A DNA stretch of 56,335 nucleotides from Rhizaria sp. SCN 62-66 (Eukaryota). Shown here in pieces: positions 2,824 to 56,335 of this stretch (position 1 is its first letter; each line of letters begins with the position of its first letter). The stretch is taken from assembly GCA_001724265.1 (NCBI GenBank), contig MEDY01000370.1:1-56335 (forward strand). The letters run 5' to 3'. The translations under genes were made by a program, and so were the position numbers. The notes beneath the pieces were generated by a model. It did no database searches. It had not been told where the DNA came from and saw only the letters and a list, made by a program, of their open reading frames with translations.

Positions 2824-3947
2824 TGCTGGAGCTGAGGTTGGTGTGACTGCAGCTGCGGTTGTTGACTCTGCAGCTGGGACTGATTGTTTTGGCCTTGAAG
2901 CTGAGGCTGCTGGTTTTGCAGCCGAGGCTGTTCGTTGCCAATGTACTGCCCCTGATCAAAACCATCGTGACCTTGACTGCTTTTGAATTCACCACCGTTA
3001 TTGTGAACGGTGTTGTTCTCAGGATGACTCGCAAATAGCCCACTATTGTTCTGTTTGTTGTTATCGCTCCGAGCCCTGTCCTCAGCAGTCGCAGCGACAG
3101 GGCCGGGCGCAGCAGCAGCGGGCGCAGTGTTACGCGGTGCAAATGCAGGCCAGCTGATGCGCACCAATCCCCCCGCACCCGCGCCGGCGCCGGCGCCGTT
3201 ACCAGCGCCGGTATTTGCGGCATCCGCGTTGCCCGCAGTCGTAGTCGCAGCGGGGACAGCGGAAGCAGGGGGGGAAGAGGCAGGCACGGCTGCAGAGTCC
3301 GTCTCCGAGTCAAAGCCATAACGGAGATGGCCAGTGCCGTTGCCGCTGCCGTTGCCATTGGTGTGGTTGTGGTTGTTGCCGACGGCGTTCGAACTGTTAG
3401 GGAGCTGCGGACCGAGGGGCTGCGGACCGAGGGGCTGGATGCTCACGGGCACACCCGCATCGCCATTAGCGCCGTCAACCGCCTGGGCGCCGCCGTGTGG
3501 GCCGGACGGCTGCATATGTTGCTGTCGCTGAGGAGGCTGCTGTGGGGCGTGGCGCTGTTGCTCCTGCTGCTAAGGCCGGGGCCGTGCAGTGAAGACGGGG
3601 AAGCTGTCGTCAGCGCCGCCGTAGTAGTCGCCGTCCTCGTCCGCAAACGCAGCAGGGGCGTGAGAGTTAGCCGTGGCGTCTCCGTCAGCGGCGCGCGGGG
3701 TGGTCAGCCGGCGGAACCCCGGCCTGGGGCCATCGACGCGGTCCTCATCGCCCCCGGCCGCAGCAGCAGCAACAGCAGTGTGCGCTGGCGCCGCGGGGCC
3801 GTGTGTGGGCGCGGAGAAGAGGAAGCCCGGCTCCGGTAACGGCTGCGCGGGGGGCAGACCGAAGTTGTTGTCGGCGGAGTCGGAAAAGTCTGCCTCTCCG
3901 GCCGGTGCCGGAGGGGTAAGCAGCGGAGAGTACGGCACGGGGTCCAT
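1..3947 (-). CDS. Large low-complexity (Gln/Pro/Tyr/Ala/Asn-rich) protein of unknown function, 3' end beyond the window edge; one in-frame TAG at 3570-3572
   Basis: ATG at 3947 (MDPVPYSPLL...). The frame continues through TAG (ARPRP*QQEQQRHAPQQPPQRQQHMQ) and stays open for about 3.5 kb to position 1. It includes poly-Q, NPY/DPY repeats and a globular-looking segment (LLWHPTRRLRLP...EVSCQFVQDCERNLLLIGIP). Confidence 0.8.
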
Positions 3948-14521: not shown

Positions 14522-15760
14522 ATGAGTGCTGACGCTGCCAACACTACACCTGAGCAAGTACTTGCTCTTACCGCCCCCACCCAGGGTATGTTCACTTCTA
14601 ATACTCGCTTTTTTGTCCTTCGCACGCGCCGCTCTTCGTCATCCATACTAATCCTTCGCTCCCAAACCCGCCTTCCGTTCGTCCCCTTTGTGCTCCCCTG
14701 TAGGATTTCTCTGCCCTCTCTCGGCTAACGTCTACGGCATCGAGTTTGACAACTTCATCGTCAAGAACGGCAACACTAACCAGGTCGTGTTCAAGGTTTC
14801 CCGCCCCCCGAACGCCGGCGCCATGGAGTTCCCCCCCGGGTTCGACATGGATCTGCTGCGTCAGGTCCGCTACCGTTTCCCCATCTCCTTTCTCGACTGC
14901 TCGCAGGTTAACACTTCGTACGTTACGCCGCTTTTGATATTCATTATCACTTCTGTCTTGCTCCTGCGCCGTTCAAGATCGCTCTTTAGCCGAGGATTTC
15001 TCTAGCTGCTGCTATCGGAAAATTCATAAGATATGCACACTTTAGTAATCATAGTTCGAGTTTCAAATTTGCAATTACGATTAGTGACGCGTTCCTTATG
15101 ATATCGTAAAACCTTGCACTCTAGTATTTTTATCTTGCTCTCAATGCACATCTTCTATGTGCACCGCTTATGCAAAAACTCATCTGTTCTCACTTTGTTC
15201 TATCACACTGCTTTGTTTCTCCACGCAGCCTCACCTTCAAGGTCGGCGACAAGCCCGTGTCTAACTTCCGCATGATTGAACGCCACTACTACAAGGACAC
15301 ACTCATCAAGTCCTACGACTTCAACTTCGTCTTTTGCCCGCCGAACTCGTGCAACGGCTGGGACGCAGAGTACGAGTTTCCTGAGCTCGACGACGCGCTT
15401 AGTACGTCAATATCTCCTCTTTAACATCAAAATTTAACACTAGGAACTCGTAACATCTACTGTATTTTGTTTCTCCGGCCAAATATTTCGAAATTCAGGC
15501 GAATCAAGTGCTAAATCATCGCAGTTACTGCTTTGCTGTCTTTTCTTCAACATTGCGCTCTTGCTCATCATTCACTTATCCCATTATCTCTGTTTTTCGC
15601 TCGTTCTGTTTATGGCACAACAGAGGCCAAGATCGCCGCGGGCTCGTTTGAGGACAACCAGGCCGACACTTTCTACTTCGTCGAGGGCAAGCTTGTCATG
15701 CACAATAAGGCATTTTTCACCTACGTCCCCGATAACGAGGCCGACATCAACAACCAATAA
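14522..15760 (+). CDS. UNC119: UNC119 / PDE-delta family lipidated-cargo carrier (exons 14522-14585, 14704-14917, 15229-15401, 15624-15760; TAA stop)
   Basis: TPEQVL.LTAPT.GFLCPLSAN.YGIEF, VRYRFP..FL, FKVGDKPV.NFRMIERHYY...LIKSYDF.F.FC.PNS.N.W, DTFYFVEGKLVMHNKA. Confidence 0.93.
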
Positions 15761-24702: not shown

Positions 24703-25508
24703 TTAGTTGCCGAGCAGGGCGTAGTCGTCAAGCTTGGAGTTGTACTTCATGATCGTCTTGCGGATCTTGGACGTGTCGACCCACGTGACGTGGTCCTCGA
24801 GCGAGCGCGTGACCAGAAAGGCGTGGTCCGTGACGACAGAGGGGCCGACGCGGACGTGGCCCTGCTTAATATAGTTGATCGCCTCGCGGAGGTTCTCGGC
24901 CATCTTGAGACGGCACATCACGACGGGGAGACGACGGCGGCAGATGGACGACACGGAGACGTTGTCCGCCTGCGACAGCGTAGAACCAGTGGGAATGATA
25001 CCCATCGAGTTCCTGAGAAAGCGAAGAAATGCGTAAGAGCCAGAAGTGAGAGTATAGTCGATGGATGCGGAGAAGGGCTGATTGAAGGGGATACAGATTG
25101 CATTTTTGGTCAGTATTAACATATTTCTCTACACTGGGTGTTCAGGGACTTTAGCCTGATGTTTAAATATCATCATCCAAATGCGAAGCCCGTTCGGCGC
25201 TCTCGAGAACGTGAGTGGGCGGGAAGAGGGTGGTTGGGGGGAGTTGGGGTTTAGACGTACAACTTGTGCAGGAGCATGTCCGTCATCTTAATACGGAACG
25301 GGTCGGCGGGGTCGAGACTCTTGACCTTGTGGACAAGCTTGTGGATCTCACCGACGATCTTGTTGTAGCGCATGTAGTCCTCGCGCTTCTCAATACCGTA
25401 GCGGCGCATGATCTCGCCCTCACGGATCGAGTCGTCGCTCTTCCACCGCAGAAAGTCCACCTTCTTGAGAAGCTTGGACTCATGGTGTTTTAAAGTACGC
25501 ATACTCAT
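24703..25508 (-). CDS. IMP3: U3 snoRNP protein IMP3 (exons 25508-25261, 25012-24703; TAA stop)
   Basis: [59 protein letters not shown]...I.KYN..LDDY. Confidence 0.96.
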
Positions 25509-34800: not shown

Positions 34801-37800
34801 GGGGCGCGAAGTTTGCCGCCGCACAGGCGCACACAGCGCATCTACCGGGCCGGCTGGGCGGCCGTGTGATTGCCGACGCGCCGGTGAGCACGCTGTCGGG
34901 CGGGCAGCGGCGGTGCGTGTCGCTGGGCATCGCGCTGATTGGCGACCCGAAGCTGGTGATCTTGGACGAGCCGACGGCGGGGCTGGACGTCGCGGCGCAG
35001 GCCTCGGTGCGCGCGCTGCTGCAGGAGCAGCGCAGGCACCGCGCGATCCTGCTCACGACGCACTCGATGGAGGAGGCCGAGATCTGCGACCGCATCGGCA
35101 TCCTCGCCAACGGCTCGCTGCAGACTGTGGGTTCAAGTCTGTTCCTTAAGCGCACGTTCGGCGCTGGTTATGTGTTGTTTGTTTCCAAGGCACCTGAGGA
35201 GACTTTGATCGAGACTGCAGCCCGCGGAAAGGCCGCTGTCGCCGCTGCAGCCGCGGCGATGGCCGTGCTGGAGCCAACCCCAGAAGAACTTGCCGTTGAA
35301 GAGTCCACGCGAGTGCGGCTCACGCCGTCAGGCCGGCGCATTGCGCGCGCCTTATCAGCCGTGAGTGCGGAGCTTGTGGCACTCTCTGACGTCGCTGGAG
35401 ACATGAAATTCGCGATTCCAATCGCTGCAGTGTCACGTCTGCCCGATCTGCTTGATATGATTGAGCGTGATAAATCGGCTCTTAAGGTCGCGTCCTTTTC
35501 CGTTTCTGTCACACCACTTTCAGACGTATTTTTTACCGTGGCCAACGCCGCTGTCGTTGATGACGATGTACCTCATGCTGTCGTTCAAATCCCATCGGTT
35601 AAGCTGCGTCCGGAAGACTCGCTTGTGCACAGCAGCAAGTCTTCATTGCAATCCTACCGCGAGGCTGCTGCCTCCGCTTTAGCCGCCCCCCGTGCCAATG
35701 GGAGGGCTGGAGATGCTGATGACAGTCTTGACGCCGTCATTGTTGCCGATTCGATGCTTAATTTGACTCAGGCTGAGCTGCGGGGTGAAATCAAAGGAGG
35801 CGAGGGGGCTACTGCGACCCAGAGCGACGAGAGTCACGTGGCGACAGTTAAGCATATGGCTACTCGTGCGAATAATTGTCTTTCAACCCCACTGCTGTCA
35901 GATGCTGAACCGACAATGATTAGCAATATGTGTCACAAACATGTCTTTACCAACACGCAACCCGACTGTGATCGCGCGATTGACAACATCAACAAGAGCT
36001 CGAATGATTCTATCCGCGAGGTTTGCAGCGATTCCACGACAAGCGGTGTCAGTACCAACAACGGGCTCAATCCCTCGAAGACAGCCACTTTGGACCACCC
36101 CAATGATGCTGGCGCTGACATCAATGGTTTCTTCGCGCACAATGACAACCTTTGGCTTGATGACTTTGCACACCGCCGCCTTTATGGCCGCTCCGTTTTC
36201 TGCGACATTTTGCGAGCAATGTACTCCAAGCGCGCAAGAATTTCGCGTCGCGATTGTATTCCGATTTTTGTTCAGACTCTTGTTCCCGTTGCGGCTGTTT
36301 TTGCGTGCATGATGGCGCTGTATTTCGCCTTTGCGCAACCTGATCCTCGAGAGACGGTTGATTTTACACGATCAGGATTATTCTCTGAGCTCCCGGCGTC
36401 GCCAAAGGCTGCACTTACTCCACTGTACGAACACAGCGAAGGCGCCGCGCTGTTTACCAATGAATACGCACGACTCAGTGCGGCGGACGCCGCTCTCCAA
36501 CCTGTCGTTGTGACGCCCCGGGAGCACATTTATGCCGATTCGTGCTACAACGCATTCACATATCAGGAACATACCTTGCAGTTGATCAAGGGACTTGTTG
36601 CACCAGATTTCTACGGTGCAGTGATTGCCGTGTGCTCAGCAGAGAACATGTTCCTAGATACCGAATCGAGTGTTTTCAAGTCGACTAGCGCGAGGACTCG
36701 TGGCAACATTGGTGCTGCGACGGCGTCCGACTTTTCAGCAATGGTTTTGATGAACACAACTGTTCCAGATGCTCTGATCCTGGCGCAGGTTGATATCACT
36801 AACGCCATGCTTAAAATGGTCCATGATCGCTCTCTCGCTGCCGCTGCTGTCGTTGCGAGTGCGGATGGCGATAACTCAACAACAGCGATTTCGAACTAGA
36901 ATTTCATGACTGCATCTACACCTGCCCAGTTCCAGCTATCATTCACCACGCGCGTGGATTCGGTGGTCGCGGCAAAAACGTTCTTTCCAGAAGGTGCTCC
37001 AGCCGCGATCTCCATTGCTGTGGCGCTTGTGCTGCTGTCGAGTCTTTATGGAATGGTGCCTCTTCAGGTACGACCACTTGAAATTTTGACATGCATCATG
37101 GAATGTTTATAAATGTACATGTACCGTCTTATCTTTTCCTGGACCCCTAATTCTTGTATTCTTCTTTGTCTTGATTTCTACTTGACGTTACTTGCTGTCA
37201 CAGGAGCGTGTGTCACAGTCGAAGCATTTGCAGTATGTGTCTGGCGGGTCCAGCCCGGCGTATTGGATTGCAAACTTTTTCTGGGACATCACCGTCGCAC
37301 TTGTTCCCTACTTGGTATTCATCGGTGTCGGTCTCTTCACACACAGCTCTTATCTCTGTGGTCTGGACGTGTTTCTGATTTACTGGTCATTCACGTTTGC
37401 GTCGATCCTTCAGGCTTATTGCATGAGTTTCTTTTGCGAAACCCCTGGCCGCCTACAAACCGCCATGTACCTTGTCAACGCGGGCTCCATTGCAATTCTC
37501 ATGCTCACGCTTAGCGCCACAGTTGATCTCACATTACAATCAGCCGAAATAACAGAGACCCTGCCGTTGTCACGGATTTTCACAGTTATGTTTCCCACTG
37601 GCGGACTTCTCATTGCAATCTTTTTTTCCGTCATGGGCCCGCTATCTGGGGAAACGCTCGCGACGTTCTCGCCTAAAATCTACGCCGGATTTATTGCTGC
37701 CTCTGCGGTTTTCTACACAATCTTGCTAATCATTTTCGAGGTCAAGTCGCGGTACGGACTTGCCGACTGGCTACTGTGCGCGCGTGCGCCTCTCCACATG

Positions 37801-39275
37801 ATCAACCCGGGGCGCCACGAGCGGCCCGCGCGGGAGGACCCAGATGTCGCTGCAGAGCGCGAGGCTGTGCTAAACGGTGAGCGTGAGAACGCGATGTACT
37901 ACCCCGTGGTGTGCTACGGGCTGCGCAAGGTGTTTCCGCCGCGCCGCTCCCCGCCCGCACCCGCGCACGTGGCCGTCAGCGACCTGCATTTTGCCGTCGC
38001 CAAAGGCGAGTGCTTCGGCCTGCTGGGCTCCAACGGCGCCGGCAAGACGAGCGTGCTGCAGATGCTCACGGGCGGAATGCTGCCCACGTCAGGCGCTGCC
38101 ACCGTCAGTGGCTTTGACATCCAGGTTCGTTTTTGATTGTAGAGTTTTGCAATTTAATATCAGGTTTGATCATTATTACTCTATCTTATTCTTGTTCTGT
38201 TTCACTTCCGGGGATATGCGACATTGATCCATCTTTGCTCACCTCATTTTGTTGCATTCACTGTTCTTTCTAGATTGACTCTGAGGCTGTCGCTACAGTT
38301 GTTGGCTACTGCCCTCAATACGATGCCTTTGTGTCTCAGCTTACGGGCCGCGAGAACCTGGAATTCTTCGCTCGCCTGCGCGGTGTATCTGGTGAGCAAA
38401 TCACAATGTACGTTGCAGAGCTTCTGCGTCATCTCACTCTCGAAGCCTGTGCGGACCAAACTGCGGCCACGTACTCCGGCGGCAACAAGCGCAAGCTCTC
38501 GGTGGGCATCGCGCTCATTGGTAACCCGCCGATCGTGATCCTGGACGAGCCCTCGACCGGCGTGGACCCGCAGGCGCGGCGCTCGATGTGGCGCCTCATC
38601 TCGTCCACGATGGCGGATCGCGTGACTGTTATGCACGCCGGTGCGCTACAGTGCATTGGTACGCCGTCGTACCTTAAGGATGAGCTGGGCAGCGGGTTTA
38701 TCGTCACCATTGCGGCAGCATCTTTTGCCACACGTGCGGCTGCAGAGGATGCGATTTTGAGTCGATTTGTTGGTGCGATGAGGCGGGAGCAGCGCGGCGT
38801 TACTCTTAAGATCTACATTCCGCGTAATGCACACTATATTCCGTCTTTAACGGGTGCACGTGACGACACCAATTCTTGTGTGAGCAACACGTCACCAACT
38901 GATGTCGCTGCTTCTGAAGATGGTACGAAATCAAAGACTCGGAAGAGCAGGCGTGGTGATTCCATGCGCTCACTAAAGCCTGTTGGTTCAGCGCACCTTG
39001 CATCGCGCGCGATAAGTGCGGCAGTGATCTTCCGTGTCCTCGAAGAGGTCAAAACGAGCGTCGGTATTGAGACATACTCTGTCGCTACGACAACTCTTCA
39101 GGACGTCTTCCTCAAGATCGTGGCACCCGAGCTTGCTGTGGGTGGCACTGACGATGCCATGCTAGCATCTGCTGTGGCGGTTTCGCCTCATGTGCGCGTG
39201 GTTAATGCGGCCGAAGAGGATGAGAAAGAGTTGTACTCGTTCCAACGCTCGCTCATCGCTGCGCAGCACGTCTAA
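31821..39275 (+). CDS. Full-size ABCA-family transporter, about 2316 aa (exons 31821-31888, 32108-37067, 37204-38124, 38274-39275; TAA stop); in-frame TAG at 36897-36899
   Basis: LVVKDMRIKVR..LSFTFELLLP, GERETKMYEMLRVTG, LLGHNGAGKST, GFCPQHD, LSGGQRR, ILDEPT, LTTHSMEEAE; second half ERVSQSKHLQ..SG....YWIANF, LLGSNGAGKT, YSGGNKRKLS, LDEPSTG.DP, TLQDVFL. Confidence 0.92.
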
Positions 39276-39617: not shown

Positions 39618-41573
39618 ATGGCTTCTTTGGGATTCCGTGGTGGCGACGCCAAGTCTGTTGATTGCGACACTCCTGTTCTGCCCGACTGCATTGCTTCGCG
39701 CAAGACGCAGCCTTTTATGCCGGCCATTATTGTCCACGGTGGCGCAGGATGGATTTCTGACGAGCGCGCTGTGGTCTGCATTGAGGGCGTTGAACGCGCG
39801 GCAAAGGCAGGCTACGCCGTGCTCATGCGTGGAGGGTCCTCCATGGACGCCGTCTAGGCCGCTGTTCGGTACGATAAATTCTTTCCATAACAAGATGACG
39901 TTCATATATAGCCATTTAAATGGGGGTTGGAGCAATTTCCACTCACCTCGGAACTTTACATGTCTAATTGCTTTATATAAACCTATTTTTTATTCCTTGC
40001 CTCTCGCAGCGTCATGGAAGACGACGAGCAGTTCAACGCCGGCCGCGGCTCCGTCCTGACGACCGCCGGCCATGTCGAGCTTGACGCCGTTGTCATGTGC
40101 GGCGACACGCTTGCCGCGGGCGCCATCGCGGGCGCCACGTGCCCCCGCAACCCTGTCTCTCTGGCCCGACGCGTCATGGAGGCGACTCCGCACGTGCTTC
40201 TAACTGGCCCTGGCGCCGATGCTTTCGCGCGCGAGCCCGGGACCGGCGTGCAGTGCGAAGGGCCCGAGTACTTCATCACCGACACGGCGCGCGCACGGCT
40301 GGAACGGATGCGCGCCGCTGCCACCGCGGCTGTGGCTGAGGAGGCCGTCGCCAAGACCCACGCCAGCTCTGCGACGATCACTTCTGATGCTGCGAATGTA
40401 GCTAAGGCGGGATTCCGCAGCGCGCTCGCCGCTGGCGAGGCCCCGCCCGACGTGAACTCCTTTATGTCTCCTTCCGCCAGTGCAGGCAGCGCTGACGCCA
40501 CGAAGCACGCCGCTGCTGTCACGGCCGCGGGGCCCGGTTTAGCCACACTAGTGGCGAAAACGCTCTCCGCTTCAAGTTGCGTTGCCAGTGGCGCCCAGCG
40601 CGTTGTTGACGGCGTTTGCGAGAAGATTCTCCGCGACCGTGGGTTCGAGCACGACACGGTCGGCGCGGTTGCCATTGACGCCACTGGCTCTATTGCCGGC
40701 GCGACGTCGACAGGTGGCATGAGCAACAAGCGTGCTGGCCGTGTCGGTGACGCCCCCATCGTCGGCGCCGGCGTCTATGCGTACGTCATCCGAAACATAT
40801 CCGCAATGCATTTCCACCATAATTTTGCCTTTTGCATTCGCACTTTCTATGTTTCATTTTTACCTCATTCTGCACATGAGTTGTTTCACATCTTGTTTTG
40901 TTTGCTTGGTTGTTTGTTTGTTTGTTTGTTTTGTTTATACAGCGACTCCGCGGTCGCCGGTGTGTCAAGCACCGGTCACGGAGAGGCCATCCTCAAGGCT
41001 GCACTTGCCTCCCGCGCCGTCATCGCCCTCGAGACTGCCACCGCAGCTGACTGCAAGAAGCAGGAGCAGACTAGCAGTGACCATGAGAGTGACCATGGGC
41101 GCGCACTCGTACTCTATGCGCTCGTCACTGTGGCTGATGCAGAGGCCGCGCTAGGCGCTGACGCTGCGGCCGCGCTCCCGCGCTACGGTTCGCACTGCCT
41201 CGCGCCTCTGCCATCCACCGTCTCCGGCGATCACAGTATCGGCAGGGGTAACTCGTCAGCTGCGACTACGCCTGCGCCTGTGCCTGCGCCCGGGAGCGAC
41301 TGCGAACTCGCTCTCGCCCACGCGCTGCGGTACATGCAGACGCGCGTGGCCGACAGCGAGGGCGCTGGGCTGGTAGCGGTTGACAGCAAGGGTCGCACGG
41401 CGCGCGCGCATAATGCACCACGCATGAGTTGGTGCTCCGTCGAGACTGTGGCAGTTCCAAACAGCAACAACAAGAGCGATGATGACAAGAGTGGCGCTAT
41501 GCGTAAGGTGGGTGTTTGCACGGCGGGTGTTGAGGCGTACAGGCCCGTGCTGCGCGCGGCCATGCACTGGTGA
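39618..41573 (+). CDS. Isoaspartyl peptidase / L-asparaginase type 2 (Ntn-hydrolase), about 550 aa (exons 39618-39868, 40010-40780, 40943-41573; TGA stop); in-frame TAG at 39855-39857
   Basis: PAIIVHGGAG, GGSSMDAV*AAVRVMEDD.QFNAGRGS, ELDA..M.G, NPVSLAR, HDTVGAVA (Thr nucleophile), ATSTGG..NK..GRVGDAP..GAG.YA, STGHGE. Confidence 0.93.
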
Positions 41574-43745: not shown

Positions 43746-46700
43746 ATGAGGTTTCTTGTTGGAATCCTTGTTGGCATCCTCGCTGCCGCCGTCGGCTCCG
43801 AGGCCATGTCTGTGACGAGCCGCGTCGAGCAGGCGTCCCTCTACCCTTCCGGTGTGGCGGCGCCCGTCGTGGCCGTTGCTGCCGAGGTTGCCGCCCCCGC
43901 GCACGTTGCTTCCGCTGAGGTCGCCGTCTCTGCCGAGGTCGAGGTCGAGGCTGAGCTCGAGTCCGAGTTCGGCATCGCTGCTTCGTCTTCCTTCATCGAG
44001 ACGGAGTTCGCCGAGGACGCCGAGGAGGAGGCTGAGCTTGACGCCGACATCCAGGCCGACATCGAGGCCGAGTACGAGGCCGAGGTTGAGGTCGACGCCG
44101 CCGACGAGGCCGAGGCTCCCGCCCTGCTCGAGCTCGACGCCGAGGCCGACATCGAGGCTGAGGCTGACGCTGAGTCCGCCATCAACTCGTTCCTCGAGGT
44201 CGCTGCCGAGTCCGAGATTGACCTCACCGCCGAGGTTGAGGAGGAGGCTCTCGCACAGGCCGAGTACGAGACCGCGTTCGAGGAGTTCCTGACCAACCCC
44301 ACTACTCCGGCCAAGGTCGAGGACAAGAAGGCAAGCGTCAAGGCCGCCGAGGCCGCCGTCAAGGCCGACCTCGCTGCTCCCGCTGCTCCTCTCGGTGCCA
44401 CTGCCAAGGCTGATGCCAAGGCCGCCGCTAAGGTTGAGACCAAGAAGGAGGAGACGAAGGAGGCCGTCGCCGCTGCTGTCGCTGCCCCGGTCAAGAACGA
44501 GACCGCCGCCGTCTCGAACGCCACCAGCGCCGCCGTTGCTCCTGTCAAGGTTGAGGATAAGAAGGCTGCCGAGGCTGCCATCAAGGCCGACCTTGCTGCT
44601 CCCGCTGCTCCTCTCGGCACCACCGCCAAGGCCGACGAGAAGGCCGCCGCAAAGGTCGAGTCCAAGAAGGAGGAGAAGAAGGAGGCCGCCGCCGCCGGTG
44701 CTGCGCCTGCCTCCGAGGCTAAGCTTGAGGATGCTAAGGCTGCTGTTGCCGCTGACCTCGCCAAGCCCGCTGTCACCTCTGCTGCGCCCGTCGTCACCCC
44801 CATCCCGGCTGTCGGCGCCGCCGCTGCTGCCAAGCCCGCCTTCCTGGAGGAGGAGGAGCCCGTCGTGGTCGCCCCCGCCCCCTCTGCTGCTGCTGCCCCT
44901 GCTTCCGCCAAGCTTGAGGATGCCAAGGCTGCTGTGGCCGCTGATCTCGCCAAGCCCGCCGCTGCTGCTGCCCCCGCTGCCGCTGCCGATGCTGCGCCCG
45001 CGTCTGCCAAGGTCGAGGCTGCCAAGGCCGCTGTCATCGCCGACCTCGCCAAGCCCGCCGTCGCTTCCTCTGGCAAGAACGAGACGTCGATTCCTGCTGG
45101 TGCCGTCATCCCTGTCAAGGTCGATGACAAGAAGGCTGCCGAGGCCGCCATCAAGGCTGACCTCGCCACGCCCGCTGCGCCCCTCGGTACCACCGCTAAG
45201 GCCGACGAGAAGGCCGCCGCGAAGGTTGAGGTCAAGAAGGAGGAGAAGAAGGAGGCTGCTGCCGCTGCTGCTGCCCCTAGCTCCGCCGCGCCCGCCGCTA
45301 CTGCATTCGTCGAGTCCCAACCGATCTACACCAACCGTCTTGACAAGATCTTTGCCCTCAAGCAGAACATCGTCGCCGTCGCCACCCCGCACGAGACCGA
45401 CGGCAGCCGCCTCATCATGGACACGCTCACGGGCAAGATTGCCGTCATCAAGCCCCGCCCGCCGCCGGTGCCCCTCTTGCCCGGACAGCTCCCCCCGTAC
45501 CGCCCCCCGCGCCCGTTCTTCCCTCCGGGCGTGAATGGCCAGACCTCGATCCTCAAGCAGGCCCTCGACGCGTACCGCCGTGAGCAGCGCATCAACGCCG
45601 CCGAGCTCGCCATCACGGACCTCTTCGGCACCACCGCCTCCACTGCCGAGGCTGCCTCGACCGCCACCTCCACCGCGGACGCCGCGGCTTCTGCTGACTC
45701 GAGCGAGGACGCGACTTTCGTCGAGCAATACAGCGCTAACTCCACCGCCGCCGCCGCTGCTGCCGACCCCAAGCCCGTCGTCGCCGCCGCCACCGTCGCA
45801 AAGGCCGAGGCTAAGACTGAGGCCAAGAAGGCCGAGGTCAAGGCTGAGGTCAAGGCCGCCGCCGTCCCCGCCGTCGCTAAGGCCGCCGTTGCTGCCAAGG
45901 TCGCCTCTGGTGACGCCGTCAAGGCCCCTGTTGCCGCCGCCACCACCGACATCAAGGGCCAGGCACTCGCCGCTGCGCTCGCCAGCGCTGTTGCCAGCAA
46001 TGGCACCGCCGTTGCCACCAACGGCACCGGCGCCGCCGTTGCTGCTGCAGCCCCCGCCGTTGTGCCCGTCAAGGTCGACGTCAAGGCCGCCGAGGCCGCC
46101 ATCAAGGCTGACCTCGCTGCTCCCGCTGCTCCCCTCGGTGCCACCGCCAAGGCCGACGAGAAGGCTGCCGCCAAGGTCGAGACCAAGAAGGAGGAGAAGA
46201 AGGAGGCCGCCGCCGCCGCTGCTGCTCCCAGCTCCGCCGCTGCCCCCGTTAAGGCTGATGACAAGAAGGCCGCCGAGGCTGCCATCAAGGCTGACCTCGC
46301 TGCTCCCGCCGCGCCCCTCGGTGCCACCGCTAAGGCTGATGCCAAGGCTGCTGCCAAGGTTGAGGAGAAGAAGGAGGCCGCCGCCCCCGCCGCCGTCTCT
46401 GATGTCAAGCTCGAGGCTGCTAAGGCCGCCGTTGCCTCTGACCTCGCCAAGCCCGCTGCCGCCGCTGCTGCCCCCGCCGCCGCCGCCGCCGCTGCCCCCG
46501 CGATGTAGAGTGTTAGCACCCCTGCCACTGCCGCTGCTGCCGCCGCCGCTAAGACCTCGCTCCTCGACTCTGCCGTCCCCGAGGACGTCGCTGCGTCTAT
46601 CGACGACCAGATCGCGCTCGGCAAGGCCCGCGACGGCCGCCAGGCCTCTGGCCGCCCCGTGCTGCCGCGCAAGAACCAGCTCCACGCCGAGTACGACCTC

Positions 46701-46934
46701 GCGCAGCGCGCTTCGACATTCAAGGCCGCGCAGGCCAAGATCCAGTCGCTCGGTGATCAGATGGCGCGCGCTGAGGCCGCGGCCGCCGCCGAGGCCGACC
46801 TCGCGGCAGCGACCATGAACGGCCTGCTCACCCCTGAGCCGGCGTCGAACGTCATCATCGCGGGCAAGACCAACTTCCGCCCCAACGATGAGTTCGTCCT
46901 TGCGTCCGCCAACACCGGCGTGCCCCTCGTCTAA
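43746..46934 (+). CDS. Secreted or surface Ala/Lys/Glu-rich repeat protein, about 1062 aa; in-frame TAG at 46506-46508; TAA stop
   Basis: Signal peptide MRFLVGILVGILAAAVGSEA, acidic region, internal repeats, and strong GCC/AAG/GAG codon bias. The frame continues after TAG (APAM*SVSTPATAAAAAAAKTSLLDSAVPED...) into the 46659-46934 ORF. Confidence 0.88.
44341..46460 (+). repeat. Intragenic dispersed repeats: 5 x KAAEAA(I/V)KADLA.PAAPLG.TAKAD.KAAAKVE and 4 x K(L/V)E.AKAAV..DLAKPA
   Basis: Read directly from the translation and from the near-identical nucleotide blocks. Confidence 0.9.
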
Positions 46935-49040
46935 GTGAAGTCACTGTGACGGGTGTGGTGCGGTATAGTGGTAAGTGGTTTGATGGAGCTGTGTGTGCTC
47001 ACAAGATACGAGTGTTTGTGCGTATGTATGTACATGTGCCAGTGTGTCTACTGCTGTATGGAAGGGATGACATTACACGACGATGACAAACAACTTGAAC
47101 ATTCACGAAAAAAGAAACAATATGAATAAGAAGATAATGAGTACTACCAACCAACACCAACGGCGATGATGACACTGATGAGTGAGAGAGAGAAAGGTTA
47201 GTTCGAGGCGCTCCTGCTGCTGCTCCTGCGGCATCAGATCCTTCTGTTACTCCTGCAGTTGCTTGCTATCATTGGCATTACATCAACAGTTGTGATTGAT
47301 ACACAATGCACAAAATTATTCCCCACAACGTAGTAATTTATGTGTCTTGTGTGTGTTTATCGTGGCGTGAGTATGTCCCGTGTCTCAAGCAGTACGCTCG
47401 CTTATATCTCGTTCATGTTGTCGGTCGCTGCTGTTCTTACTGTTGGTTAGTCCTCGTTGTGACGTATGCTGTTGTTTCTTGTTCCTCTCTGGTTGTTTGT
47501 CGTCTTAGTATCATTCCATCTTGCACAAGCACTGTGTCGTATCACTCTCCTCGTTCATCAGCCCGTCTTAGCTCTCCTCGCCAGCGTGCTCACTTTCTCT
47601 CTGAGCCCTTCTCCCCCGTCGGGCGCGGCGCCGCGTGTCGTCGCCCCCGCATCTGCACGCCCCGCGCCGGTGGGTGCCCGCTTTACCCTGGCCACCGAGG
47701 CCGGTGTAGCGCCCCGCCCCGCGACCCCGCGCCGCTGCAGACGCCGTCGCCGTCGCCGCGCTTTGACATGCCGCGTTTGTCATCTTTCTCCTTTACCGAC
47801 CAGCCCTCGTGCTGCGTCATTCGCGCGCTCTTCGCTCTTTCTCCTGACGTGCTGTCACTCCGGAGGACACGGCCGCGGTTTCTTTTATTTTTATATTTCC
47901 TTTTGTCTGTCTTAATGTTTTCGCTCTACTACACTTCGCAACCGCTTCTCGTCCGCAACAATGCCAGTCAAAGGGTGTGCTTGCGGACTGGTTGATGGTT
48001 CAGTGTGCGGTGCGCCTTCTTTTCATTACTTGGTCCGTGCGTTCCCCCTTTTTCTCTCGCATTTTGCACTCACTCACACACGCTCGATATATCTCTCTAT
48101 ACAGCGTTGTGCCAGTCAAGTGAGTCGCGGTGCGATGGGGGCCGTTCATGGGCCCTGTTAGCGTCAACGTGGGCTACGTACACTGCTATTAACCTCAATA
48201 ACAATAACAACAAACCTCCACTCAACCACTCAAAATAAGCAAAACAACACAAAAACAAAATTAGTCGCGCACACGTGGCTGCTCAGTCGCTGTTCCTCTT
48301 TCACACGCAAACTCACACTACACACATAATCTCGCTCTTTGTGTCCGTGGTGCCAGGTGTTCGCTGGTGTTGGTTTCATGACGGCGTTGTGCTGTCACAT
48401 GTTCTTAATGTTTGTTTACTTTTATTTTGTCCTTCACTTTCTGTCACAAGGCGTGTTCCGCCGCCAAAATAGGGATCGCTCGTTTCGCGTCGCACCACCG
48501 CGTAGCACGGCGACGCCCAGTACTAAGGGCCAGCTGTCTGGTATTGTTGTGTCATCACAATAATGCAACAGCTCCTAAGTGCTACGTTGCTGTCCTGTGT
48601 CGTGTTGTGCGCCGTGTATCGTGTCTGTCTCCCCCTTTCGTACCATCAAATATTTGGCTGCTGTATTGCGCTGTGTGCGTCGGCCATGCGCTCTGTTTCT
48701 CTCTATGCCCTCTTAGTCTGCGATCCACAGAGTGGGTGTTGATGCGCAATGTAATACACAAATGTAGTCTCCAAAACGTCGTTGTCAATATCAGTACGTA
48801 CGTACGTACTTTCGGACATATACACGTATATTAATTCATCATTGATTCTTGTATTGTTTTCATCAGTTGTGTGCATACTCATTCACAAGCATGTGAACAT
48901 TCCATTTGCCCATACTCTGTTTCTTTTTTCCCCACAGAACAATGGCATACACCCACATCCACAGGTGCGTTTGCGTCTCTTCTGCCCCCAACTCCTATAG
49001 CTTTCTCTATCTCTTGGCACTGACGCAAGCTGGATATCAA

Positions 49041-50432
49041 TCAGTGACCCGTCGTCGTCGAGTCTGTTGTTGCGTTTGCCTTCTCTTCGTCCGCCACCAC
49101 AGCCTCAACCAGCTCAATGGCGCGCTTGATGCCACATCGTTCGCTCTCGTCCCACGCCAACATCGCCTCCAGAGCCAGGAGCTCGTTCTCCCGCACTTTG
49201 TGACATGGGTATGCAGCCACAAGTGAACGCAGACCCTCATGCTGTAATTTTGAATATGCCCGAGTTTTATAGAAGAGTTTTTGTGTCTTCTCGAGTTTTT
49301 GTGTCTTCTCGTTCTCGCGGATGCGTTCCTCATTGTCATACGGCGCAAAATCGGTGATGAACACGAACAGCATATAGCCTAGTGCGTAGATATCAGCCTT
49401 GAACGGGTCGAAGTTTTGCCTCAAAACTTGAGGAGAGTTGTACTTAGGGGTTCCCATGGTCCCACTCATGCGCTCAGCGACGACTGTTCCTGTGAGATCA
49501 GGCAGTTGACGAGAAATCTTTTGCGGAGTAGGCCACTCATCCTCAGCTAAGCTCTCGTTGACGCCGTCCATGCTCAGAGCTGGAAGCTGCTCGCTGAGAA
49601 ACGCAGGAATATCCTGGCAGATCGTGCTGATAACGCGCTGCCGGCTTTCCTCGTCGTGCTGCTCCAGATGAGCCGGATCTACCACGGGACCAAAGCTGTT
49701 CTTGAGAGACTCGTGTGAGCGGCGCCAGAAATCGGTGCAGGACTGTGCGATTCTCCACCATTGTGATGCCGTCGCGACATAGTTCTCATTAGCACCGGCG
49801 GGAGCGATGAAGCGAGCCGGTGTCGCAACGCGTGACATGCCGAAGTCGATGAGCTTCACGAATAGTTCTTTAGTGATTGCACACCGTTTGAACACCACGT
49901 TCTCAAGCTTGAGGTCGAGATGTGCCATGTAAAGACGGCTGTGCATGTAGTCAACTGCGTAGAGCAGATCGAGGAACATGCGCAGCCTCTCCAGGCGAGT
50001 AGTAGTTGCGACTTCATCGAGCCACAATGAGAGGACCTGGGCTCCGCCATCCTCCATCGCAAGGGCAACACGCTTCTGCTGAGCAGGGTTACCAACCGAC
50101 GCAGCAGCTAGAACTAGGGCCGTCTGTGGGAAGCACGGATGCCTCTCGCAACCCACAAAGCGGGTTGCGGCCCACTCGACAAGGGGGTCCTCGAGCTCAG
50201 AAATATGGATCTGATTGGTGGAGATCTTAGTGACTACTTTCTGCCCACCAAGACCGACAGCATGTGCCGCAACCCGATTGTCTTTGGCAATGATAATTTT
50301 GTTTTTAGGCTAGTCGACGAGCGTTCCGACTATTGGGTTGAGTAGGGTGCGAGTCTGCTCCTCGACGTCCTCGAAGTCCACGACGGCTGTTGGATCTACA
50401 GGGTCGTAATGCGTGCGCAAAGCTGATAACAT
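49041..50432 (-). CDS. Divergent Ser/Thr protein kinase, about 463 aa, intronless; in-frame TAG at 50310-50312; TGA stop
   Basis: ATG at 50432, ...GTLVD*PKNKIIIAKD...QKVVTKIS (VAIK equivalent), EDPLVE (helix C), HLDLKLEN, VKLIDFG, GTPKYNSPQV, KADIYALG, ML.WDESER. Confidence 0.85.
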
Positions 50433-51951: not shown

Positions 51952-54018
51952 TCACACACCGCCGCCAACAGCGCCCTTAGCCACCGCCCCGCCTTGCGCC
52001 GTCTGTCCCGCAACCACAGCTGCAGCCGCACTTGGTGCCGCTGCCGCCGCAGCCGCAGCCGCCGTAGCAGCAGCTGCAGCTGCTGCTGCCGTGGCCGTGG
52101 CTGCAGCCTGCTGCCTCGACTTAAACACCGGCATTTTATGCGGCGGACACGGCGCGGGCGCCTCTGCAAACCACGGGTGACGCACGGCCTGCGCCGCTGT
52201 AATGCGCCGCGCCGGGTCATAACACAGCATGCGTCCGAGCAGGTCCACGCCGGCCTCTGACCCGGAGAGCGCGGGGAACGCGGCCGCGAGCGCAGGCGGG
52301 GACGGTGCGCCGGGGGCCGCGGCCGCTGCGGTGGCGGCAACGGCGGCGGGGGACGTCAGCAGCGGCGCGCACGCCGGCCACGCGGCGACGGTGGGCGGGC
52401 CGAGCAGACCGGCGATGCGCAGCACTTGCTCGGTGGTGTTGCCGCCAGGGAACAGCGGGTGGTGCAGCAGCAGCTCGCCCATGACGCAGCCGGCGGCCCA
52501 CATGTCCGCCGCCGTGTGGTAGCCGCCCGCGTTGAGCAGCAGCTCCGGGGCGCGGTACCACAGCGTGTAGACTGACGGGGATAGGGGCGCGAGAGGAGTC
52601 GGGAGAACGCGTGCGAGGCCGAAATCAGCGATCTTCAGGTCGCCTAAGGGCGACACCAGGAGATTACTCAGCTTGATGTCGCGGTGAATAATGCCCATGT
52701 CGTGTAGGTACTCTAGTCCGCGCAGCATCTGCAGCACAAGCGTCTTGACTTCGGAGACCGTGAAATGGCGTGCAGTGCGATCTAACAGCGTGCCCAAGTC
52801 ATACTCGCACAGTTCGAACACGATGAACACCTGGTTCGGCTGCCGGCCCACCACAACGTCCCGCAGCGCGACAATGTTGCGGTGCTCTAGCCGCCGCAGC
52901 AGCGCGACTTCTCGGAGAGACGTGAGATGGAATCCAAGGAGCTCGTTGGTGAGCAACAGCCGCTTCATTGCAACAGTCTCGCCGCTGCGTCGGTCTTTGG
53001 CCAAATAGACAGTGCCGTAGGTGCCTTCACCAAGGCGGCGGAGCTTCTTGTACATCGTGATGCTCGCGCAGTGGAATGAGCCCATCTGTGCGTTGAGAAC
53101 TTGCGTGCTGCTATCCTGATGCTGCTGCTGCTGCTGCTGCTGCTGTTGCTGTTGTTGCTGTTGCTGTTGCTGCGGCCCAGCTTCAGTCCCCGTTGTCCCC
53201 GTCGCGGGCGCAGGGTCGGCCGGCGGCGGCTGCGACTGGAGCGGCGGCAGCGGAGCCTGCGCCTCGCTCCCCGCAGCAGCGGCGGCGCTCGCGGTAGCAA
53301 AGCTCCACTGCTGATACTGCAAGAGGTGTTGTTGTTGTAATGCGTGCTACTGCGCCTGGTGTTGGTAATACTGCTGCAGCTGTTGTTGTAAATCGTAGAT
53401 GCCACCGCTCGCAGTGTCACTGCCACCGAAATAGGAGCTAGAGCTTGAAGCAAACTGCGAGGGCACGTTGTTGTAGTTATGAGACGAATAGGGTCCGAAC
53501 ATATGCTGCTGCTGCTGCTACTGCTGCATCGTCGGTAAGAAGGCGGGTGAGTACGCGTCAGTTGCAGCACCTGTACTATTCGCGCTCGCACTTGCACCCG
53601 TAGTCGCGGTCGCACTGTTTGCATTCGCTGCGTTTGCAGACGAACTTGCTGGAGCAGGCATGGGGCCATACGGCTGTTGCTGTTGCTGCTGTTGTTGCGC
53701 TGCCGCTGCTTCTGCGCTCGCAGATAAAGCCTCGAGGGAAGGGTGTCCGTAGAGGTATGCACTCTCTGCTGCGTTGAGTTGCTGCTGGAGCTGCTGATGT
53801 AGGTATTGTTGCCTCTGCTGCTGCTGCTCTTGGTGCTGTGAAGTGGACGTGTGTGGCAGTTGGCTAGAAACTGCGTTGTTCGCGCTGCCACCGCGGCCGT
53901 CGTAATTGAAGGTCTTAGAAATGCGCATTCCTGTGTCGGGGAGTGGCGTCTGGTCCGGTTTGATGCTGTGTGTCGTGCCGACATCATCGGTCATGGGCAT
54001 CACGCGAGTGGATTGCAT
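51952..54018 (-). CDS. CDK10/CDK11-like cyclin-dependent kinase with a long Gln-rich N-terminus, about 688 aa; in-frame TAGs at 53518-53520 and 53347-53349; TGA stop
   Basis: GEGTYG.VY.AKD, VAMKR, GFHLTSLRE (PSTAIRE position; compare CDK10 PISSLRE), DVVVG, HRDIKLSNLL, DFGLAR, TLWYRAPELL. The upstream frame is continuous through two TAGs. Confidence 0.9.
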
Positions 54019-54644
54019 GATGTTGACTTCGGATGGGCGTTGTTTGTCTAAAGTAAGTGCTATGAGGAAGAATATGAAATATATTATGAAATACAAGGAT
54101 TTTCCAACTTGGTAAGCCTCGTATCTTTGTTGACGGAAAACTCGATGATATCCACTTTGAATAAGATTCTGACCTAAAGCAGCTCCTCGCGCTCGTGCAA
54201 TGACGGTGGACTGCGAGACTCCACAAAACGAAGCTGCTACCTCGATAGATCATAGATACGACTTGAAAGATTGTGGAGATCTATACAACGCGACAGATCG
54301 TTCTTGAATTTATATCTTTCTTGTTCACCAACGTTTTGTATAACCCGATATGCGCTTGCCGCGAGGGTCGCTCAGCTTCACCTGGGGAGCGGGCTAGCGT
54401 GATACTCCGGAGGAGGATTCCCCTACATTCTTATCGTCAATAGTGATTTGCAACAAGTCTCACCTATTCTACTTAATTTTCTATTTAAAAACTGTGCGTT
54501 GTATCTGTAGCTCGTACACATATCGTTTTATAGCAGGTTTCCTTTCACATCCTTGGAACACTCTCCAGCCTTTCACCCCGCGTCGCCCCGCACCACCGTC
54601 CCGCACCGCCCCTCGCGCGCCCACCTGTGCCACCTGCGCCCCAC

Positions 54645-56335
54645 ATGAGCCGCCCACCGCCCAGCGCGCTGCCGCGCCCCACACTTATCTACAACGCGTC
54701 CCCGACCGACCCCGTCGGTCCCGGTCTCATTATCCCCAAACCACTCCCTCGCAGCACTGCCGCCGCTGCCGCCGCGGCCACAGCGTCCAGCTCGACTGCA
54801 GCCGATCCTCACTCAACCACAGCCTCCGCGCCGGCGTTACCTGCCCCATCGTCGCGGCTGGACGCTGCGCACTCGAGTTCTCCCGCCATCGCGCGCTCCT
54901 CCCCGCTCTTCCCTCTCTTCGCGCTGTGGCAGTCTGTCGCGCGCGTGGTCGTGCCAGACTCCCTCGCCGTCGACGCCGCCCGCGCCCGCGCCGCCGCCCC
55001 CGCGCTGGCCCCGCGCCTTGCCCCGCGCGTTGCGCAACTCCGTCCGCTCGACATCATCCTCGTCCGCACCCCAGGCGCCGTATACGCGTCACTGCGCAGC
55101 GCAACGAAACAGCCGTATGACCACCTCGGCATCGTGCTCGCTGATACGGCAACGTTCCTCCACATCGGCCCGCCCGTCGTGCGCGTGCTCGCCACGCAGG
55201 TCCTGCTCGACCCAGCCCGCTCGCCTTTAGTCCTGCGCCCGCGAGTGCGCTCGCCCGCCGCGGCCGCTGCGCTGCTGGCCGAGCTGCAAGCCCTTGTCGG
55301 CAGCCCGTATAAGGTGTCCCGCGCCTACGCGATCGTCGCGCGCACGGCGGTTGAGAGCGCAACGGGACTCGCGCTGCCGCTGCCGCCGCCCGCCGCCGCC
55401 AGACTCAACATGGGCAGCTTTAGTACAAAGACAAACGCTATCACCAGCACTAGCACAAGCACAAGCACCGCGACTGTCGTTACCAGGCGCGAGAGCAGTG
55501 ACAGTTCAAACAATGCCGCTGCGCCTGCGCGTGTGACTGCAGCGCCTGTTGTTGCGGCTCCCGCGGACGAGGCGTTCATCTGCTCCGACTCGATCATGGA
55601 GCGTTTGCTGCGCTACAGCCCCGCCCTGTCCTCGCTGGCTGAGGCCCACCGTAGTCGACTGCACATCGGCACCCTGGGCGCGTGGACAGTCTCGGATATC
55701 ATGTTGTTGCACGCGGAGGCGGTCAAAGAGCAGCGGCAACGCAGGGACCGTGCTCTACAAGCCGTCCTGAGTCGCGATAACAACAGCGTTAACGCTGATA
55801 CGAAGACCTACGCAGGCAGCACTGAGAGTCATTCTAGTGTTGATGGACTGAGTGAAGATAGCGGTGATTGGTGCGCTCTGGAGGAAGTCCCGTTGCCGCC
55901 TGCGCCGTCGTTGCCGTTGTCGCCGTCGCGGTCACTCCCTCTGGCTACCTCAGCTCCAGCGCCACAGTCGCAGTCGCACTTGCAGTCGCAGTCTCCAGTG
56001 TGGCAGTCCGTTGTGGCTGCAACGGCGCAGGCCCCCACTAGCGCCGGTCTCACCACCGCCACTGGCATTCCCCTGACCAGCTCTACCTCGCCTGGCAGTT
56101 CTCTCTCTCAGTCGCAGTCCTCTGGCTCCGGCTCCGGCTCCGGCTCGGTCTCGCTCTCCGGCTCACAATCGCAGACCGGTGTTGGGCGCGCCACGATTGG
56201 CGCCGCGGGCGTTGTGTCCCTGCTCCGCGGACTCGCCGCCTCTCTAGCCGACGCCGGCGCCGACGCGACGGCCGCGGCGGCCGCGCGCGACGCCGCCGCG
56301 CGGGCCCGCGCGCGGGTGGCGCGGGCGGGGCGGCG
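54645..56335 (+). CDS. Protein with a permuted papain-like NlpC/P60 (YiiX/YebB-type) domain, 3' end beyond the window edge
   Basis: Frame is open from ATG 54645 to the window end. LRPLDIILVR...YDHLGIV...LVGSPY...FICSDSI shows the His-before-Cys order of permuted NlpC/P60 enzymes. It is absent from the ORF track because there is no stop in the window. Confidence 0.65.
   Translation, partial: MSRPPPSALPRPTLIYNASPTDPVGPGLIIPKPLPRSTAAAAAAATASSSTAADPHSTTASAPALPAPSSRLDAAHSSSPAIARSSPLFPLFALWQSVARVVVPDSLAVDAARARAAAPALAPRLAPRVAQLRPLDIILVRTPGAVYASLRSATKQPYDHLGIVLADTATFLHIGPPVVRVLATQVLLDPARSPLVLRPRVRSPAAAAALLAELQALVGSPYKVSRAYAIVARTAVESATGLALPLPPPAAARLNMGSFSTKTNAITSTSTSTSTATVVTRRESSDSSNNAAAPARVTAAPVVAAPADEAFICSDSIMERLLRYSPALSSLAEAHRSRLHIGTLGAWTVSDIMLLHAEAVKEQRQRRDRALQAVLSRDNNSVNADTKTYAGSTESHSSVDGLSEDSGDWCALEEVPLPPAPSLPLSPSRSLPLATSAPAPQSQSHLQSQSPVWQSVVAATAQAPTSAGLTTATGIPLTSSTSPGSSLSQSQSSGSGSGSGSVSLSGSQSQTGVGRATIGAAGVVSLLRGLAASLADAGADATAAAAARDAAARARARVARAGR

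Follow-up and report, generated by a model that had tools for sequence, protein, structure and literature searches.

Few nuclear genetic codes are described as separating UAG from UAA: those named in the accounts of stop reassignment that we draw on are Iotanema, the rhizarian exLh, some phyllopharyngean ciliates and one oligohymenophorean. According to the same accounts, such codes bear on how eRF1 and suppressor tRNAs separate two codons that usually change together. Here we analyse a 56,335-nucleotide stretch of DNA from Rhizaria sp. SCN 62-66 (contig MEDY01000370.1 of GenBank assembly GCA_001724265.1; hereafter the window), in which the gene for a CDK10-like protein kinase carries two in-frame TAG codons embedded in Gln-rich sequence. 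In this organism TAG very probably has a sense meaning, and its likeliest reading is Gln. If true, this is an independent data point from outside the AT-rich genomes in which stop reassignments are usually discussed.

Iotanema spirale is described as reading UAG as Gln while UAA and UGA still terminate (Panek et al. 2017, PMC5304391). The code of the window works like that of Iotanema: UAG alone is reassigned and is a minor codon, making up about 8% of Gln codons there according to the same report (PMC5304391) and about 1.6% here (7/436). The UAG-only type of code is already known but rare, and this lineage is a further case. Unlike Iotanema, an anaerobic fornicate, our organism is GC-rich and intron-bearing, and Gln is suggested by the context of the codon rather than, as in the published account, by hyperconserved columns, a tRNA or a likelihood test. 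The window also encodes what we take from its motif to be a LipB-like lipoyl transferase, presumably unlike the expectation for a fornicate.

Two further groups resemble the window in part. Among phyllopharyngean ciliates, UAG is reported as Gln for Hartmannula sinica and for Trochilia petrani and as Leu in a clade from TARA data (McGowan et al. 2024, PMC11687900). These codes are similarly described as UAG-only with UAA as a stop, and some were found in metagenome data (PMC11687900). The ciliates differ in that our sequence carries some 20 genes, with introns, on a contig of 56 kb, at a GC content of 0.57, and TGA is its commonest stop (8/13). Such DNA does not look like ciliate macronuclear DNA. 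The rhizarian exLh (Sainouroidea) is reported to read UAG as Leu, with UAA and UGA as stops in 56 and 15 cases (PMC5304391). As described there, it too has a UAG-only code and is a protist other than a ciliate, seen solely in mixed sequence data (PMC5304391); it differs in the residue, since Leu is disfavoured here. Our lineage is probably distinct from Iotanema, exLh and the phyllopharyngean ciliates.

NCBI table 6 (ciliate, dasycladacean and Hexamita) shares TAG = Gln but also reads TAA as Gln, whereas TAA is a stop here. The aphelid code, which reads TAG as Gln, is grouped with table 6. The UAR = Glu codes of peritrichs and Blastocrithidia, as described, also make UAA a sense codon, unlike here, and would be the closest known codes if TAG encoded Glu. 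In one ciliate, UAA and UAG are reported to encode different residues (PMC10553269). Our literature searches on stop reassignments found no report of a code with UAG = Glu and with UAA and UGA as stops. The ciliate with split UAA and UAG is said to use Lys and Glu. Nor was a literature report found of a UAG-only code in a wastewater eukaryote; supplementary tables of papers on codes may list more lineages.

TAG within genes and at gene ends

The CDK10-like gene has the following features, all on the minus strand.

51952..54018, minus strand: CDK10-like gene with TAG read as sense, 688 codons, opening at the first in-frame ATG (54018-54016) and closing with TGA (51954-51952)
53518..53520, minus strand: in-frame TAG no. 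1, codon 167, context TMQQ-TAG-QQQQH in a CAG run
53347..53349, minus strand: in-frame TAG no. 2, codon 224, context HQAQ-TAG-HALQQQ
52168..53052, minus strand: protein kinase domain, Pfam PF00069, E 8e-63, residues 349-643 of P0001
53086..54018, minus strand: N-terminal extension, Gln/Ala/Ser-rich low complexity, 311 codons, GC 0.586
53083..53085, minus strand: alternative start, the Met before the kinase domain (MGSFHCASITMYKKL), aligned with the Met of MESYACQPVTVYEKL in P0008

A first-pass annotation of the DNA had placed the two TAGs in poly-Gln text of this gene, and both of its strings were recovered exactly on the minus strand and in the frame of the kinase. The first, ATGCAGCAGTAGCAGCAGCAGCAGCAT, occupies 53529-53503 with TAG no. 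1 at 53520-53518, and the second, CACCAGGCGCAGTAGCACGCATTACAACAACAA, occupies 53361-53329 with TAG no. 2 at 53349-53347. The standard code splits the gene into a 192-residue open reading frame (ORF; 53518..54096) and a 456-residue ORF (51952..53322). Translation by table 6 or 15, in which only the two TAG codons are read differently, fuses them as the annotation had proposed, yielding one 688-residue protein that ends at TGA. Codon scores flanking TAG no. 1 were 13.1 upstream and 12.4 downstream.

Neither TAG is an assembly error. DNA contigs from two metagenome runs list no difference there. A contig of run X1 (piece 53301-56246) spans both codons; this run may be the sample behind the window's own assembly. 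The other comes from run X4, which belongs to a different study a decade later; it has a variant at 53417, from which 223 letters remain to the contig end, and no listed TAG difference.

The kinase domain is complete, covering PF00069 profile positions 1-263 of 263. The best named homologues are CDK10 and CDK-G proteins at 43-51% identity, many of them named CDK10 (43-47%), and they match the kinase half only. Best matches are scattered among stramenopiles, algae, fungi and animals, at no more than 51% identity. The helix motif is LTSLRE, which we take to resemble the PISSLRE motif of CDK10. Judged by its closest named relatives and not by a tree, the kinase may be called CDK10-like, a claim that stops short of orthology. 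It shares the full Pkinase domain with the CDK10 / CDK-G subfamily and differs from it in the 311-residue Gln/Ala/Ser-rich extension and in an Ala-rich C-terminal tail.

Within the window we counted seven in-frame TAGs in six genes, among about 11,100 codons (about 0.6 per 1000). The five outside the CDK10-like gene are as follows.

39855..39857, plus strand: TAG in Asparaginase_2 exon 1, context SSMDAV-TAG-AAVR, 12 nucleotides 5' of a GTACGA splice site
36897..36899, plus strand: TAG in an ABCA-type transporter, between its first half (NBD1) and the second membrane domain with NBD2
50310..50312, minus strand: TAG in kinase 2, codon 41, gene start 50432
46506..46508, plus strand: TAG in a secreted-looking Ala/Lys/Glu repeat protein, with 141 coding-like codons beyond, then TAA at 46932-46934
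3570..3572, minus strand: TAG in a large low-complexity protein, context RPRP-TAG-QQEQQRH

We left out of the count the TAGs at 28726, 38271 and ~42412 (minus strand), which resemble 3' splice sites.

Five lines of evidence for a sense TAG are independent of the CDK10-like gene: four of these genes, and the pattern of gene ends and flanks. In the asparaginase, exon 1 reads GGSSMDAV-TAG-AAVR up to a GTACGA...CAG intron, after which the protein continues as VMEDDEQFNAGRGS. The spacing DAVxAAVRVMEDD in the spliced product is identical to that of solved ASRGL1 structures (DAVEGAVTVLEDD), and with exon 1 included the Pfam match scored 223 bits instead of 192. The organism's own 76-residue asparaginase fragment in the protein database (P0127) ends just 5' of the TAG. 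Gene callers that use the standard or bacterial code cut this organism's proteins at TAG, and proteins of such organisms are therefore truncated in metagenome catalogues.

In the ABCA-type transporter, a 1555-residue ORF stops at TAG 36897. The frame goes on past it through 53 coding-like codons, as far as a CAG|GTACGA donor, and past the intron the protein resumes with ERVSQSKHLQYVSG, followed by the second membrane domain and NBD2. The flanks of this TAG scored 17.5 and 11.0, both coding. Kinase 2 has an orthologue, P0277 (34% identity, 97% coverage), whose ORF is unbroken and which shares the N-terminus ML.A.R..Y.PV. Starting kinase 2 at the next ATG after the TAG would delete the N-lobe, leaving a Pfam match from profile position 70.

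In the repeat protein, the flanks of TAG 46506 scored 25.6 and 24.0. The 141 codons past it scored 0.518 per codon, the highest of all segments tested and the best of the six frames. Among the pieces listed for run X8, a polyA RNA contig on 46505-46780 includes this TAG. In the large low-complexity protein, the 125 codons 5' of TAG 3572 scored 0.31 per codon, also the best of six frames.

By our own reading of the gene models, genes end in TGA (8/13) or TAA (5/13) and never in TAG (0/13), in a small sample in which some ends rest on an ORF and a drop in GC alone. We also scored every triplet by its flanks, requiring 40 coding-scoring, stop-free codons on each side. At this strict setting 3/736 TAG passed, compared with 0/880 TAA and 0/1844 TGA. 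Looser thresholds also passed 5 TAA and 2 TGA, a point that counts against the test; these lay mostly antisense to GC-rich genes, and as antisense frames pass looser settings the test is informative at the strict one only.

In-frame UAG thus occurs in conserved coding sequence and no gene ends in it, as in a UAG-only code. The code is a reassignment of TAG only, with TAA and TGA still stops. The first-pass annotation had implied table 6; TAA ends genes (5/13) and none of the 880 TAA has strict coding flanks, therefore the code is not table 6.

Under the standard code, the in-frame TAGs would be put down to errors of sequencing, to nonsense mutations in genes that are decaying or to leaky read-through of a programmed kind. 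Such an account draws on the rarity of TAG in frame (7 per ~11,100 codons) and on most long ORFs being TAG-free. It has to contend with six affected genes, conserved ones among them, with concordant assemblies ten years apart and with coding signal that persists past the TAGs. The absence of TAG from 13 gene ends would have a probability of about 0.02-0.06 if TAG closed a fifth to a quarter of genes. We consider the standard code very improbable here.

Translation of the Gln-rich extension

We next consider whether the tract that holds the two TAGs of the CDK10-like gene is part of the protein, which we think probable, with some room for doubt. The frame of the kinase runs for 765 codons without TAA or TGA. 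It had the best coding score of the six frames in segment A (54018-53521; 0.111, others at most -0.114) and in segment B (53517-53350; 0.136, others at most -0.015). GC content jumps from 0.38 to at least 0.54 exactly at ATG 54018, the first in-frame ATG. Eleven ATGs lie in the tract, the last at 53502, and initiation at 53085 therefore needs an mRNA that starts inside the tract. A comparable Gln-rich tract with a TAG is found well inside another protein (3572).

Several observations weigh against translation of the tract. Segment C (53346-53086), between TAG no. 2 and the kinase, has no frame preference, and a second frame is open across most of the tract (a 340-residue ORF), as expected for CAG-rich sequence. 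A search with the full-length protein matched the kinase domain only, with no homologue of the extension or of the C-terminal tail. A search with the tract alone found no relatives among 8000 candidates; poly-Gln words probably swamped it, as it also missed the window's own 192-residue ORF. A pattern scan of metagenome contigs, with three of six patterns poly-Gln, returned distant kinases only (L001-L006, 28-51% identity). Homologues of the CDK10 type are compact; the kinase domain of P0008 (48% identity) begins about 20 residues past the N-terminus, and a Met of P0008 aligns with Met 53085. The sole strain variant in the tract (53417 T>C, X4) falls, by our reading of the DNA, at a second codon position and changes Asp to Gly in low-complexity sequence, while both kinase-domain variants (52816 and 52387; X4, X8) are at third positions.

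These points are what one would cite for a start of this gene at Met 53085. TAG would still be a sense codon in the organism, and the tract would be a 5' leader, an upstream ORF or sequence not transcribed with the kinase, leaving its TAGs uninformative on the code. The size of CDK10-type homologues, mostly 380-430 residues and matching 45-55% of the query, fits such a start. The composition of the tract does not, since its GC content is 0.586 whereas non-coding DNA in the window is AT-rich; nor do the preference for the kinase frame in segments A and B, the lack of TAA and TGA, the first in-frame ATG on the GC step, the eleven upstream ATGs or the similar tract at 3572. The first-pass annotation had named a start at this Met as the outcome that would leave the tract untranslated. 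The P0008 alignment gives that start some substance, against which the upstream ATGs, the coding frame and the GC step count for translation. We regard the downstream start as unlikely.

RNA coverage of 54018-51952, which the annotation had proposed as a check, is so far available for part of the gene: the listed pieces, 52729-52995 (X5) and 52209-52504 (X8), lie in the kinase part and none lies on the tract. The X5 piece is marked as probably DNA, and both are silent on the transcript start. Read depth within the tract is confounded by CAG/CTG repeats of other organisms, with many loose ends at 53673-53697.

Small 5' introns that splice out both TAGs are another way to leave these codons untranslated. 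Possible donors are GTACAG (53576) and, upstream, GTGACA/GTATTA, and each TAG could act as a YAG acceptor. The candidate introns, however, are 25-75 nucleotides long, GC-rich and without a local donor, and each alone shifts the frame, whereas introns of the window are about 135-145 nucleotides long and AT-rich, with GTACGA or GTACGT donors. A search of the tract for the local donor type, GTAYG[AT], found none. We give splicing hardly any credence.

With the tract translated, as we favour, the two TAGs would belong to an N-terminal extension of the CDK10-like kinase that is Gln-rich and specific to this lineage, and would most likely be read as Gln to give the 688-residue protein. They may have arisen through neutral C-to-T changes in CAG codons. 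More generally, TAG alone would have passed from stop to rarely used sense codon, TAA and TGA continuing to terminate, and it would be decoded by a tRNA with the anticodon CUA.

The residue encoded by TAG

The first-pass annotation had read TAG as a CAG-like codon for Gln. The neighbourhood of the codons bears this out, while the one conserved column argues the other way. A Gln neighbour was found for 3/7 TAGs, compared with 124/429 Gln codons (0.29) and a rate of 0.093 for the next residue, Met; among codons one step from CAG the rate was 0.06-0.12. If TAG had the neighbour rate of Gln codons, at least 3/7 with a Gln neighbour would arise with a probability of 0.33; the value is 0.038 for the CGG rate, 0.013 for that of Glu and 0.008 for that of Leu. 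Codon counts in the extension are CAG 46, CAA 22, TAG 2, GAG 4 and GAA 2, that is, 68 Gln and 6 Glu codons.

The residues were also compared with a classifier that used local composition at six sites and the homologue column at the asparaginase site, with a flat prior. With all sites it gave Gln 0.95-0.99 and Glu 0.004-0.027, and with a single TAG per gene Gln 0.79-0.89. The annotation's view that the two TAGs of the CDK10-like gene are the best evidence for Gln in the window holds, as Gln and Glu become a toss-up once this gene is left out.

The asparaginase column is the sole alignable conserved TAG site. In kinase 2 the residue opposite TAG was Q by BLASTP (with Q in the query) and S by MAFFT (with X in the query), and the site was not used. 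Across 148 asparaginase homologues the column holds E 96, V 28, Q 15, T 4, M 2, A 1, L 1 and gap 1; P0127, the organism's own fragment, and P0130, a long repeat protein, were excluded, and the query carried Q at the TAG, which could only favour Q.

Certain results tell against Gln. Glu predominates in the asparaginase column, and the two nearest relatives, P0128 and P0129, which have the intron at the identical position, carry Glu. Without the CDK10-like gene the classifier gave Gln 0.15-0.35 and Glu 0.29-0.56. The argument from Gln context presumes that Gln-rich tracts are translated, and C-to-T change in CAG runs yields TAG whatever TAG means.

A sense TAG that encodes Glu, or with less likelihood another residue, would make the TAGs in CAG runs tolerated Gln-to-Glu changes, brought about by C-to-T in a disordered tract. 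Beyond the column and the reduced classifier, Glu-interrupted Gln runs occur in these proteins (QHQEQQQQ, xQQEQQ), and UAR = Glu codes are described in peritrichs and Blastocrithidia. Against Glu stand the low probability of the observed Gln neighbours at its rate, two TAGs in a tract with 6 Glu and 68 Gln codons, the presence of Gln in 15/148 sequences at the asparaginase column (as DAVQAAV) and the low value for Glu in the classifier with all sites. We judge Glu doubtful. A residue other than Gln or Glu appears more doubtful still: Leu, for instance, occupies the asparaginase column in 1/148 homologues and was outside the classifier's top five residues in every run.

Most known UAG reassignments, in the accounts we draw on, are to Gln. 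With this bias of known cases included in our estimate, Gln is the likely residue. That all three hold together (TAG as sense, the tract translated and the residue Gln) is a conjunction towards which we lean, though only slightly. More speculatively, the window may represent a further independent origin of a UAG-only code, in an unsampled, aerobic, GC-rich, non-ciliate lineage; in its boldest form this would be UAG = Glu with UAA and UGA as stops. We give this possibility a low probability.

The window and its other genes

The window is a piece of the nuclear genome of a eukaryote seen in bioreactor, wastewater and activated-sludge metagenomes, and metagenome runs show the organism recurring in wastewater reactors over ten years. 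Its 56 kb hold about 20 genes on both strands, with spliceosomal-type introns. Overall GC content is 0.57, exons being GC-rich and introns and spacers AT-rich (mean 0.624 in coding and 0.473 in unannotated sequence). Genes identified are an ABCA-type transporter, an Asparaginase_2, a choline-transporter-like protein, an MFS transporter, a short-chain dehydrogenase and two kinases. From motifs known to us, further exons were assigned by eye to what are presumably a methionine aminopeptidase and LipB-like, UNC119-like and IMP3-like proteins. A scan of the window for tRNA genes found none, and an Rfam search of it gave no match.

Other public assemblies contain relatives of this organism: matches to the asparaginase exon reach 70% and 59% identity (P0128 and P0129), with identical intron position, and those to kinase 2 (P0277-P0281) stand at 34% identity on contigs of up to 78,790 bp. 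Scans of genome contigs and viral contigs with P0128, the choline transporter and P0278 as queries gave no matches.

Introns, delimited by homology and by reading the DNA, have in common a donor of unusual strictness, GTACGA or GTACGT and sometimes GTATGT; they end with CAG and are about 135-145 nucleotides long. They are AT-rich (GC ~0.35-0.4), far below the exons.

39869-40009, 37068-37202, 40781-~40935, 5222, 5733, 28578 and 42543(-): introns or donors of the GTACGA/GTACGT type

Some apparent stop codons in the ORF list are in fact inside donors or introns, such as the TGA in GTACGTGA at 23038(-) and the TAA at 5251.

In NBD2 of the ABCA-type transporter (38560-38640, plus strand), about 25 residues seem to be absent between the Walker B/D-loop region (ILDEPSTGVDPQARRSMWRLISST) and MADRVTVMHAGAL. 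The gap may reflect a small exon or intron that went unrecognised, or the residues may truly be deleted.

The repeat protein (43746-46934, plus strand) has 1062 codons, a signal-peptide-like start and an acidic region. It holds many copies of KADLAAPAAPLG(A/T)TAKAD(E/A)KAAAKVE and, past the TAG, a non-repetitive C-terminal domain. On its antisense strand 1115 codons in a row are free of stops, which can mislead gene callers, and many unrelated metagenome contigs attach to its GC-rich repeats.

Two of the genes assigned by eye are as follows.

14650-15760, plus strand: exons that we take to resemble an UNC119/PDE6D-type lipid-binding protein
24703-25287, minus strand: exons presumably of an IMP3/S4-type protein

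The UNC119-like gene, if real, hints at a flagellated or ciliated life stage. A short tandem run of (GTAC)n lies in a spacer at 48794-48809.

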